From assembly GCF_016903815.1 (NCBI RefSeq), contig NZ_CP069973.1: DNA of 64,000 nt; one strand, 5' to 3'. This document shows positions 870 through 3,078 of the stretch, one piece after another; positions within the stretch are counted from its first letter, which is position 1, and every line of letters begins with the position of its first letter. The DNA is from Escherichia coli. GTDB lineage: Bacteria; Pseudomonadota; Gammaproteobacteria; Enterobacterales; Enterobacteriaceae. Both the position numbers and the translations under genes were made by a program. The notes under the pieces are model-generated. The model did not search any database. It saw only the letters and a program-made list of their open reading frames with translations, and had not been told where the DNA came from.

Positions 870-1287
870 CAATTAAAGACCGGTTGGTGCGGCACTGACC
901 GGTCAGTTATGAATGGTAGATTTCACCTTAAACCCTGGTGCGGTAAAGCTGCTGACTTTTTCGGGTACACCATCCTGATGAAGCAAATGAACACCCAATC
1001 AAAAAAATATTCTTGAATATAAAATATTTATAGCACCCATAATTCATCCTTATTATTTGTTGTTTCTTTTCTGTAGATGTGTCCCCGCTTAATTAAAAGT
1101 AATAAACCATCCTGGGTTATTACTAAACCATTTTTGAGTAACAATTGAAATAACTGCAACTGTTACATTATCTTTGGATGCCGTCTCGCAAAAACAAAAC
1201 GACATGCAAAAATCCGCTTTTTTTAAATGATTTTTCGGCGTAATTTTCGCACATACATTAATGAGTAATATATGTAAGGTGGTGGTA

Positions 1288-1506
1288 ATGGCGATGAATA
1301 CGGTTTTTCTTCATTTATCAGAAGAGGCAATTAAACGGCTGAATAAGCTTAGGGGCTGGCGTAAGGTTTCACGATCTGCAATTTTACGCGAAGCGGTAGA
1401 GCAATATCTGGAACGTCAGCAATTCCCGGTGCGTAAAGCAAAGGGAGGCAGGCAAAAGGGGGAGGTAGTTGGTGTTGATGATCAGTGTAAGGAGCATAAG
1501 GAATGA
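1288..1506 (+). CDS. yiiE: ribbon-helix-helix (CopG-like) small regulator, 72 aa from internal ATG
   Basis: ORF track 1261..1506; GGTGG Shine-Dalgarno before ATG at 1288; LREAVEQYL motif; position upstream of fdhE. Confidence 0.6.
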   Translation: MAMNTVFLHLSEEAIKRLNKLRGWRKVSRSAILREAVEQYLERQQFPVRKAKGGRQKGEVVGVDDQCKEHKE

Positions 1507-1709
1507 CAAAAATTTTTCATTCTTGAATATAAAAAAACAGATGCCCTTATTCTGGTATTAATACAAGGCTGTTTTACTTGAACTTATAATAACTGCAACT
1601 GTTACATCATATCTGGAAAACGCCTCGCAAAAATAAAAAGTGATGCGTAAATACGCTTTCTTTAAAGATTCGACAAGGGTACTTTTCTCTCCATAGATTC
1701 AAAAATGAT

Positions 1710-1967
1710 ATGGGCGAGATATTTATGAACTCTCTGGCAGGTATAGATATGGGCAGAATTTTACTCAATTTATCGAATGAGTTGTTTAAGCAACTTGATG
1801 ATCTCGAGGTGCAGCATAATCTTCCTCGTGCGGAGCTATTACGGGAAGCGGTAGATCAATACCTGGTAAATCAATCGCAAACAGCAAGAGCCAGTGCTTT
1901 TGGCATCTGGCAAGGGAGTGAGGAAGATGGTGTCCAATACCAGCGTAAGCTGCGCGAGGAATGGTAA
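1710..1967 (+). CDS. yiiF: ribbon-helix-helix protein with VapB-antitoxin-like C-terminus; true start may be 1725 or 1749
   Basis: ORF track; paralogous to the upstream RHH ORF (LREAVDQYL); C-terminal AFGIWQG...YQRKLREEW. Confidence 0.6.
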
Positions 1968-2148
1968 TGGCAAAAAGATTTGGCTATTTGATATCGATAT
2001 TGTTATCGATTTGTTCAGTGTGAAAATTGAGGCAAAACAGGCACTGGCAGCATAGCTTGAGGTGGTAACGCGGAATAAGAGAGATGGTGTCGTCACACCC
2101 TATGAACTGTAATCCGGGCGACCTGCGCCACCCGGAAAACGTCAGAGA

Positions 2149-3078
2149 TTACTCCCCTTCACCCGGAAACAGGAACGGGTTGATGGAACTACGAGCATAG
2201 CCTTCTTGCTCCATTCGCGCGTCCAGTACCAGAGAGGCGAGGTCATCTGCCACGGCTTCAACTTTCGGTTCTTTTTCCTGATAAAGAATCTTCAGGTAAG
2301 TGCCGCAGTCATCGCAGCTTTCGGCTTTAATCGCGGCCTGTTCGTCATCCAGCGACCAGTAATGCAGTTTGCCGCTCTGCTCGCAGTTGCTGCATTTTAC
2401 GCGCACTACGTGCCATTCGGTTTCACACAGGTTGCAGTGCAGGTAACGCAGACCCTGAGTGGTGCCAATTTGCACCATGCTGGACACCGGCATAGAGCCA
2501 CATACCGGGCAATATTGACGTTGTTCGCCGTATTCAGCGCGGGCTTTGCCGGGGATCAGATTAGCCATCTGCGCCCAGTAGAGCGACAGCGCAGCCCAGA
2601 TAAACGGCGCTTTATCGCTGCTGACGGACGAGAAATCAGAGGCAAACAGTGCGCTGGCCATATCTTCCAGCTCCTGAGTCGATGCCTTCTCCAGATTCTC
2701 AATCACTGCCAGCGCCGGGCCGCTCATTTCAGGTTTCAGCTCAGCAATCAGCGCCATCAGCAGCTTTTGCCAGTGCTTATCACGCGGCAGAACGTGAATA
2801 TCCAGCGGGGGCTTGCCCTGTGCGCTGGCTTCTTTAATGCGCGCGGTCAGATCCATCTCCAGCGGATGGTCGTACAGCACCACTTCCTGGGCGTGGGCGA
2901 TAAGCGCAGCAAAGCGCAGGTAATCACCCAGCGGATTATTTTCTGCCAGCTCGCGCAGACGCTCGGCGCGGCGGTTGTATAAATTCTTGAGCCGAGGGAA
3001 CAATAACGGCGGAATCATATCCGCCGTACGTTTCTCGCTCGAACCCAGCTCATCTTGCGGGATTATGCGAATACTCAT
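2149..3078 (-). CDS. fdhE: formate dehydrogenase accessory protein FdhE
   Basis: 309-aa ORF with paired CxxC motifs; recognised sequence; synteny with fdoGHI. Confidence 0.93.

Follow-up and report, generated by a model that had tools for sequence, protein, structure and literature searches.

Two small, related genes lie side by side between fabY and fdhE on the chromosome of Escherichia coli, and the second of them looks like an antitoxin without a toxin. Where does such a pair come from, and what has become of it? We addressed this question in a stretch of 64,000 nt from one E. coli genome (RefSeq assembly GCF_016903815.1, contig NZ_CP069973.1; hereafter the window), in which yiiE (1288–1506, plus strand) encodes a 72-aa ribbon-helix-helix (RHH) protein of the CopG family, yiiF (1725–1967, plus strand) encodes an 80-aa RHH protein, and the convergent gene fdhE (2149–3078, minus strand) flanks them as a syntenic anchor. 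An earlier inspection of the letters without database searches (the sequence-only reading) had described the pair, and the coordinates that it gave proved accurate. The comparisons reported here make it very probable that the two genes are the antitoxin half of a tandemly duplicated, decaying chromosomal vapBC locus, which joins an RHH antitoxin to a PIN-domain RNase and whose functions we infer. In this strain the vapC partner of yiiF survives only as a wreck at 1967–2112. The older copy, yiiE, has its own vapC reduced to scraps at 1503–1556, and both genes keep the ancestral AT-rich leader.

YiiF and the remains of its toxin gene

Positions 1–2200 of the window are 100% identical to the chromosome of E. 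coli AR_0067 and to several other complete genomes. The NCBI Prokaryotic Genome Annotation Pipeline (PGAP) gives, in the matching genome, the order nadS, two small hypothetical genes, yiiE, an 80-codon gene and the convergent fdhE–fdoIHG; the 80-aa product of 1725–1967 is labelled 'hypothetical' there and is called YiiF in other strains. Two entries in the Protein Data Bank (PDB) place this product. Shigella flexneri YiiF (2K5J, a nuclear magnetic resonance structure) matches it with E=9.6e-42 and 69 of 80 identical residues, counted from the alignment, and the 11 substitutions in the window allele are unusually many inside one species. Over its full length, C-terminal toxin-binding tail included, YiiF also matches chain A of 7BY2/7BY3, the VapB of Klebsiella pneumoniae (E=1.9e-26; query 7–85 against 7BY2_A residues 2–82, with the tail conserved). 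Chain A is entered as 'CopG family transcriptional regulator', and its partner in the crystals, chain B, as 'Ribonuclease VapC'.

Profile searches, which the sequence-only reading had proposed for both proteins, gave a divided answer. YiiE passes Pfam RHH_1 (PF01402) with 44.2 bits (E=1.5e-11; gathering score 20.5), whereas the window YiiF falls short for both RHH_1 (14.4 bits) and RHH_3 (18.5 bits; cut-off 21.6), so that its family membership rests on the homology to 7BY2_A and 2K5J and not on a Pfam score. The toxin-linked VapB allele of E. coli TCM3e1 passes RHH_1 with 26.6 bits. The chromosomal position is shared as well: K. pneumoniae carries fabY–hydrolase–vapB–vapC–fdhE, with a VapC that is 100% identical to 7BY2_B, and the Citrobacter interval holds fabY, an alpha/beta hydrolase gene, an RHH gene whose product is 70% identical to YiiF, a PIN gene (124–128 aa) and fdhE. 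On these grounds YiiF is the positional ortholog of the crystallised VapB antitoxin. The suggestion that it is a toxin-less RHH antitoxin of the PIN-paired kind, made in the sequence-only reading, is upheld by the 7BY2_A match and by the synteny with vapBC.

Directly behind yiiF lies what is left of the toxin gene. The yiiF stop codon TAA (1965–1967) overlaps an ATG at 1967 (TAATG), the same arrangement as in intact alleles, and the sole PDB match of the peptide that follows is residues 6–29 of the 7BY2_B VapC (E=0.0065). Intact E. coli VapC, compared with the whole window by tblastn, matched 1969–2052 (E=2.7e-6) and 2056–2109 (E=1e-3; a second tblastn of the 3′ relic gave E=2.3e-4), with no other convincing VapC match in the 64 kb, and the relic DNA resembles intact vapC with z=39. 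Its 5′ part (1967–2055, plus strand) represents codons 1–30, and its 3′ part (2056–2112, plus strand), placed by tblastn and global alignment, represents codons ~101–124 (LEVVTRNKRD-----GVVTPYEL, then stop). Four lesions emerge from the global DNA alignment: a 1-nt deletion at nt 17, a TGG-to-TAG change in codon 30 (W30stop), a deletion of ~213 nt (nt 92–304) and one of 15 nt (nt 334–348). The largest takes out a stretch with two conserved acidic residues of the PIN domain (WME and LPD, read from the alignment); the original vapC stop TAA (2110–2112) is retained, with a hairpin after it.

The remnant thus amounts to 146 nt (1967–2112) inside the 181-nt gap between yiiF and fdhE, and with only codons 1–30 and ~101–124 left there is no intact PIN-domain toxin. 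The overlap of antitoxin stop and toxin start is present behind both genes, as TAATG for yiiF and as ATGA for yiiE. The sequence-only reading was right that no intact toxin open reading frame (ORF) follows yiiF, but wrong in holding the convergence of fdhE responsible, since a 124-aa vapC has room there in intact alleles. The frameshift at the start of the relic also makes an 18-codon hydrophobic ORF (1967–2023), found in loci L017 and L022 too (L numbers are those of our comparison set); its ATG overlaps the yiiF stop, which could mean translational coupling and is probably accidental.

Live versions of the locus exist. Escherichia sp. E4694 has the order fabY–yiiE–vapB–intact vapC–fdhE, and E. 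coli TCM3e1 has the same, with a toxin that PGAP names 'VapC family toxin'. Of 5426 complete E. coli genomes, 57 (~1%) give a full-length megablast match to the TCM3e1 vapC, in one copy each and always on the chromosome; the intact E. coli VapC has 124 aa and scores 69.7 bits against Pfam PIN. An intact vapC also occupies this locus in E. albertii. An alignment of eleven alleles yields a decay series, in which one internal deletion junction is common to all seven toxin-less alleles (window, K-12, L002, L017, L022 and two of E. fergusonii). The 15-nt deletion is added in the toxin-less alleles of E. coli, four of which have the W30 stop, and a ~150-nt insertion resembling repetitive extragenic palindromic (REP) elements lies near the 5′ end of the vapC relic in K-12, L002 and E. 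fergusonii. In DETEC-P793, yiiF and most of vapC are gone through an independent deletion that runs from the leader core into vapC. That vapC was instead inserted beside a pre-existing yiiF is argued against by the common junction of the internal deletion and by the ATG overlapping the stop.

The insertion, which resembles REP elements or bacterial interspersed mosaic elements, is seen in K-12 (L016, 3370–3560), L002, L013 and L014, and the window allele is without it. The 330-nt spacer between yiiF and fdhE of K-12, nominally intergenic, consists of a pseudogene and a repeat element.

A duplicated module and its leaders

The gapped local alignment of 1109–1502 with 1549–1960 is colinear, with 262 of 423 positions identical and a score of 95, compared with 14.2±2.3 in 300 composition-preserving shuffles (z=35; 0/300 as high). 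The duplication therefore took in the gene together with its leader, as the sequence-only reading had held. It had started from a motif common to the two proteins (LREAVEQYL in one, LREAVDQYL in the other), and BLASTP confirms them as paralogs (E=1e-10, 38% identity over 56 aa, the LREAV(E/D)QYL block included). A repeat finder picks out a 79-nt direct repeat (1149–1227 and 1588–1666) that is 81% identical, higher than the 61% (130/213) of the coding sequences, and an exact 16-mer, ATTCTTGAATATAAAA, stands at 1009 (1009–1024) and at 1519 (1519–1534). The leaders, in short, align well beyond chance, and the family that the proteins match is one of antitoxins.

YiiE itself matches 7BY2_A with E=1.1e-7. 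Its tail, GGRQKGEVVGVDDQCKEHKE, aligns at the DNA level to the VapB tail and is without all three aromatic residues of the toxin-binding motif there (W63, Y72 and W80 of VapB). As a paralog of vapB/yiiF it is confined to Escherichia: named YiiE homologs come from Escherichia and Shigella only, E. albertii included, and the duplication is genus-specific but old, older than the radiation of the genus. The yiiE stop overlaps an ATG at 1503 (ATGA), with which the second vapC relic begins (1503–1556, plus strand). This contains the second copy of the 16-mer (~vapC codons 82–87) and, at 1539–1556, CAGATGCCCTTATTCTGG (the codons of PDAIIL), which agrees with nt 274–291 of intact vapC (1-based) at 17 of 18 positions (z=6.8). 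The equivalent 38 nt of E. coli L017 agree with nt 259–296 (1-based) at 31 of 38 (z=10.3), and the ORF after yiiE in E. coli L002 and L017 starts MTKRVALFGSNIFVIL and resembles VapC residues 1–16, MAKRTALFDTNILIDL.

The stretch with TTCTTGAATATAAAA and CAGATGCCCTTATTCTGG before yiiF is, by these matches, probably the debris of a second vapC that once stood behind yiiE, and the whole vapBC module (leader, vapB and vapC) was duplicated. The sequence-only reading had assigned all of it to the leader of yiiF; the box at 1588–1666 is indeed duplicated, and the distal TTCTTGAATATAAAA at 1519 and CAGATGCCCTTATTCTGG are probably toxin-gene remains rather than control sequence. An ancestral-leader origin of the PDAIIL scrap was considered when MAFFT paired it with the palindrome of the Citrobacter leader; the DNA comparison (17/18 and 31/38) favours the vapC relic. 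Farther upstream, the segment at 997–1045 (plus strand), which includes the first copy of the 16-mer, resembles the relic after yiiE (37/54 against 1502–1552, z=4.2, 0/300 shuffles) and is not significantly like intact vapC, 24 of 300 shuffles scoring as high. Possibly it is what remains of a third, older toxin gene.

The two leader boxes share a fixed architecture. In copy 1, before yiiE (1149–1227, plus strand), the 20-mer AATAACTGCAACTGTTACAT with the palindrome TGCAACTGTTACA (1155–1167) precedes the core TTTGGATGCCGTCTCGCAAAAA (1173–1194); in copy 2, before yiiF (1588–1666, plus strand), the 20-mer with TGCAACTGTTACA (1594–1606) precedes the core TCTGGAAAACGCCTCGCAAAAA (1612–1633), and phased A-tracts follow. 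We aligned 19 leaders, comprising those of Klebsiella and Citrobacter vapB, of toxin-linked and toxin-less Escherichia yiiF and of yiiE. The core T.TGGA..G..TC.CAAAA is invariant in all of them, and the 20-mer with its 13-bp near-palindrome occurs in both Escherichia leaders and in none outside the genus; the yiiE leader of Escherichia sp. E4694 has the perfect palindrome TGCAACTGTTGCA. Another palindrome, ATATAC-TGGAG-GTATAT, spans the Shine-Dalgarno (SD) sequence and is intact in six of six toxin-linked leaders, and degenerate in five of five orphan yiiF leaders. Across E. coli, E. fergusonii and Escherichia sp. E4694, yiiE leaders carry CAAAACGACATGCAAAAATCC and yiiF leaders TAAAAAGTGATGCGTAAATAC, and this persistence of paralog-specific differences makes recent gene conversion unlikely. 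The TGCAACTGTTACA sites, the invariant core and the SD-flanking palindrome of the toxin-linked leaders are candidate operators.

Other explanations of the leaders were set aside. A structured RNA or known RNA family was rejected after RNAalifold had found 0 pairs across 14 leaders and an Rfam scan of the leaders had given best hits (E=0.33 and 0.4) far under the gathering scores. The invariant core (1173–1194 and 1612–1633) contains TGG-N9-TCGC, the spacing of which is that of the sigma-54 promoter glnAp2. We give a sigma-54 reading little weight: the core is without the near-invariant C of TGGCA, an activator would be needed, and the literature search found no paper that links yiiF with RpoN. 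A consensus scan weakly predicts a sigma-70 promoter-like site before yiiF (TCGACA-18-TAGATT, 1670–1699, plus strand). The G+C content is 31% in the leaders, 46% in the genes and 55% in fdhE. The low value of the leaders fits reports that yiiE is bound by H-NS and induced 2.5-fold by SlyA overexpression (PMC5797941) and that the RpoS holoenzyme binds the yiiD–yiiE spacer in vitro (PMC5493296). The yiiE leader also has a ~45-nt segment with a near-perfect hairpin (1098–1124, AGTAATAAACCA-TCC-TGGGTTATTACT), which is present in the window and E. fergusonii, is missing from Escherichia sp. E4694 and looks like an indel polymorphism.

Natural yiiE::yiiF hybrids show that the tandem copies recombine. 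In E. albertii, a yiiE-type leader precedes a 72-codon gene, of which residues 1–35 match YiiE 3–37 and the remainder is the VapB tail, followed by an intact vapC; E. coli L022 and L023 have the same kind of hybrid before a gutted vapC of the window type. The crossover lies inside the LREAV(E/D)QYL block. From the E. albertii hybrid, the YiiE leader and DNA-binding domain would appear able to run an operon with a live toxin. The intact vapB–vapC of TCM3e1 and E4694 and the vapC of E. albertii are nearly identical, and the synonymous divergence (dS) between TCM3e1 and E4694 is 0.06 in vapB, 0.25 in yiiE and 0.095 in fdhE, which suggests that the live vapBC module was exchanged between Escherichia species.

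In certain E. coli and E. fergusonii, one or two additional genes are inserted on the minus strand between yiiE and yiiF (L002, 3007–3459; L003/L004, 3007–3747; L013, 3018–3755; L017, 735–2348). They encode a hypothetical protein and, in L017, a DUF6708 protein as well. The inserted DNA has taken the place of the distal yiiF leader but leaves the 79-nt box untouched.

Selection and competing explanations

We compared selection on the two genes by Nei-Gojobori counts on five toxin-less alleles, summed over pairs, with fdhE of the same strains as a control; region-split rows for vapC-intact alleles with the Klebsiella and C. freundii genes were left out for indel misalignment. Codons 1–44 of yiiE, the RHH part, show no nonsynonymous differences (Nd=0) against 44 synonymous ones (Sd=44), and the ratio of nonsynonymous to synonymous differences per site (pN/pS) is 0.48 in the tail. 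Among YiiE cluster representatives the picture is similar, with a pairwise difference of 5.5% in the RHH part and 25.5% in the tail. Purifying selection on the RHH domain of YiiE is strict; the tail that formerly bound the toxin has degenerated. For yiiF, pN/pS is 0.46 over the whole gene, 0.32 in the RHH core, 2.15 in the linker at codons 47–60 (Nd 50, Sd 8) and 0.14 in the C-terminal 20 codons (Sd 18, Nd 12), compared with 0.04 for fdhE; the closest pairs reach 1.68 (window and K-12) and 1.39 (window and L017). In a Tajima test with a Citrobacter outgroup, the window YiiF has 14 unique amino acid changes and the toxin-linked E. coli allele has 0 (chi-square 14; p ~2e-4 by the standard distribution). 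The contrast between the two genes is large, though the numbers are small.

RHH antitoxins generally bind operators and repress their own transcription. By analogy, YiiE and YiiF would bind, as RHH dimers, to operators in the AT-rich leaders and repress their own genes; in this strain there is no remaining toxin for them to counteract. YiiE seems to be a domesticated DNA-binding regulator, perhaps with both leaders as its targets, since the Escherichia-specific 20-mer with its 13-bp palindrome is present in each. YiiF appears to be an antitoxin that was orphaned recently and whose constraint is relaxed; it may be decaying or kept only as an autorepressor, and the locus itself would keep rearranging through unequal crossover in the LREAV(E/D)QYL block, independent deletions and insertions. 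A further idea, which we put forward tentatively and rate below even chances, is that YiiE serves as a toxin-insensitive extra repressor of vapBC/yiiF and of its own promoter through the TGCAAC-N-GTTACA palindrome in both leaders. If so, live yiiE–vapB–vapC alleles would be three-component toxin–antitoxin (TA) loci, and the E. albertii hybrid would be a natural domain swap in which the YiiE DNA-binding module suffices for the operon.

Several points weigh against this interpretation of the locus as a decaying, partly domesticated vapBC. DNA binding and autoregulation by YiiE and YiiF are presumed from their family, and the sigma-70 consensus scan singled out no promoter, with 4 sites compared with 3.7±1.8 in shuffles. 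The selection statistics are rough: the gene has 80 codons, the species recombines, and the 10 pairs compared are not independent of one another. The toxin-binding motif is still conserved in the orphan YiiF (pN/pS 0.14), where pure decay predicts otherwise. The near-identical live alleles in three Escherichia species mean that the pattern may partly reflect lateral exchange instead of vertical decay, and the scrap at 997–1045 (z=4.2) does not fit a single duplication into two units.

Could yiiF, and perhaps yiiE, be a functionless relic on its way to a pseudogene, with leaders alike through shared ancestry that has not yet eroded? We consider this possible, though doubtful. The whole-gene pN/pS of yiiF with its values above 1 for the closest pairs, the 14:0 Tajima count, the score under the Pfam RHH_1 threshold, the degenerate SD-flanking palindrome in all orphan leaders and the outright loss of yiiF in DETEC-P793 all fit such a relic. 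However, 5424 of the 5426 genomes match the region of the locus, the C-terminal codons and RHH core of yiiF are still constrained, and the leader box is better kept between the paralogs than the coding sequence (81% against 61%), although the duplication predates the radiation of the genus; for yiiE a relic is excluded by the RHH counts (Nd 0 against Sd 44). The similarity of the boxes might alternatively be kept by gene conversion between the tandem copies, and not by selection on a shared cis-element. That the copies form natural hybrids and that the 16-mer is identical at 16 of 16 positions between poorly conserved flanks speak for conversion, but each leader tracks its orthologs and not its neighbour, with paralog-specific differences conserved across species, and the core is also conserved in the single-copy leaders of Klebsiella and Citrobacter, where conversion is impossible. 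We therefore hold it to be quite improbable.

YiiF might also remain a working antitoxin against VapC from elsewhere, giving anti-addiction or cross-protection against vapBC elements or recombining alleles. Anti-addiction is an idea that has been proposed for solitary antitoxins. The conserved toxin-binding C-terminal motif of the orphan, the intact yiiF ORF in the alleles examined and the circulation of live vapC alleles in E. coli (57/5426), which look recombined between Escherichia species, would all suit such a role. A source of toxin is harder to find: tblastn with intact VapC gave no close homolog on 72,556 plasmids (the two matches above 60% identity are this chromosomal locus, mislabelled, and the next, at ~50%, come from Burkholderia and Rhizobium), E. 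coli genomes have at most one megablast-detectable place for vapC, always chromosomal, and no other VapC lies in the window. At nonsynonymous sites, moreover, the rate of change in YiiF as a whole is about ten times that of fdhE, and yiiF is deleted or truncated in some lineages (L018; short variants). The role is thus unlikely overall, and its specific form, anti-addiction against plasmid-borne vapBC, is not supported, the plasmid search having yielded no true plasmid candidate. The two mislabelled records, CP125156.1 (5.37 Mb, K. pneumoniae) and NZ_CP151862.1 (425 kb, C. freundii), are filed as plasmids and evidently chromosomal, with dtd, fabY, fdhE and fdoGHI. Hardly credible, finally, is that YiiE and YiiF are ordinary CopG-type transcription factors outside TA biology whose likeness to VapB is superficial. 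PGAP does use the name 'CopG family transcriptional regulator', no NCBIfam antitoxin model scores above its cut-off, and YiiF is among the uncharacterised transcription factors of E. coli surveyed in PMC9308461; this stand-alone reading is already contradicted by the full-length homology to a crystallised VapB, the same locus, the live vapC in 1% of E. coli and the wreck that starts at the stop-overlapping ATG.

We also compared the pair with known systems. K. pneumoniae VapBC (7BY2/7BY3) has the same antitoxin family, chromosomal position, overlap of vapB stop and vapC start, and leader core; the window differs in having no working toxin, in the extra diverged paralog yiiE, which Klebsiella does not have, and in the degenerate SD-flanking palindrome before yiiF. 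Shigella flexneri YiiF (2K5J), a structural genomics entry titled 'uncharacterized protein yiiF' and bearing no functional assignment, is the same gene. In orphan or solitary antitoxins and decayed type II TA loci, the antitoxin gene and its autoregulated promoter region likewise outlive the toxin gene; what sets the present case apart is a decay series within one genus, a duplicated locus and one copy that is apparently domesticated. Like the RHH repressors of the CopG/Arc/MetJ type, YiiE passes RHH_1, has a small dimeric DNA-binding fold and is preceded by palindromic candidate operators in its leader, but its origin is an antitoxin and its proposed targets are two leaders only. MvpAT of the Shigella plasmid pINV and VapBC of Salmonella LT2 similarly combine a PIN VapC with an upstream autoregulating antitoxin. 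Those antitoxins have a DNA-binding domain of the AbrB/SpoVT type and not an RHH. Against the NCBIfam models of the tRNA(fMet)-endonuclease VapC, the intact E. coli VapC scores 29 and 19.8 bits, where the cut-offs are 140 and 143. With no intact PIN toxin the window is not a functional TA locus; it is one by descent.

Neighbouring features and the meaning of the locus

A G+C-rich hairpin (CCGGGCG...CCCGG, 2114–2135, assigned to neither strand), read from the sequence, separates the stop codons of vapC and fdhE. It can be aligned throughout the allele set, is kept beside intact vapC, occurs after the Citrobacter vapC as well and is probably a shared bidirectional terminator. At the other end, the window start cuts nadS (1–232), a NadS/MqsA-like helix-turn-helix antitoxin gene (Pfam HTH_3, E=4e-10), whose NCBIfam score of 44.7 bits is under the cut-off because the window edge truncates the gene. 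In full-length loci (e.g. L001, 5630–6232), a 103-aa ORF that PGAP calls a RelE/ParE-family toxin precedes nadS; it is a pseudogene in DETEC-P793. Together, nadS and this ORF form a second TA-like pair ~1 kb upstream of yiiE. Two small Arg/Cys/His-rich ORFs at 317–529 (70 aa) and 591–869 (92 aa) have no match in Pfam or NCBIfam; they are kept beside yiiE in E. coli, E. fergusonii and E. albertii, and are absent from K-12 and Escherichia sp. E4694.

Orphan antitoxins and the decay of TA loci are already well known, and no new mechanism is at work here. The literature search found no searchable paper that combines 'yiiF' and 'antitoxin', although some pointer to this connection may already exist in curated databases. 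To our knowledge, E. coli K-12, the reference organism of TA biology, has not been credited with a vapBC locus. For two uncharacterised y-genes, yiiE and yiiF, the latter encoding the protein of 2K5J, the analysis supplies an origin, and it shows that the presence of a live PIN toxin at this site is polymorphic in E. coli, with 57 carriers among 5426 complete genomes. The gene decay is of an ordinary kind, and it is unusually well documented because ~1% of sequenced E. coli keep the live toxin at the same spot. The alleles, which are intact, internally deleted, further deleted, REP-invaded, hybrid-collapsed or fully lost, provide a natural series for the fate of an antitoxin and its operator after the death of the toxin, and the frozen DNA-binding domain of YiiE beside the drifting YiiF bears on the role of orphan antitoxins, which could be junk, serve against addiction or have been recruited as regulators.

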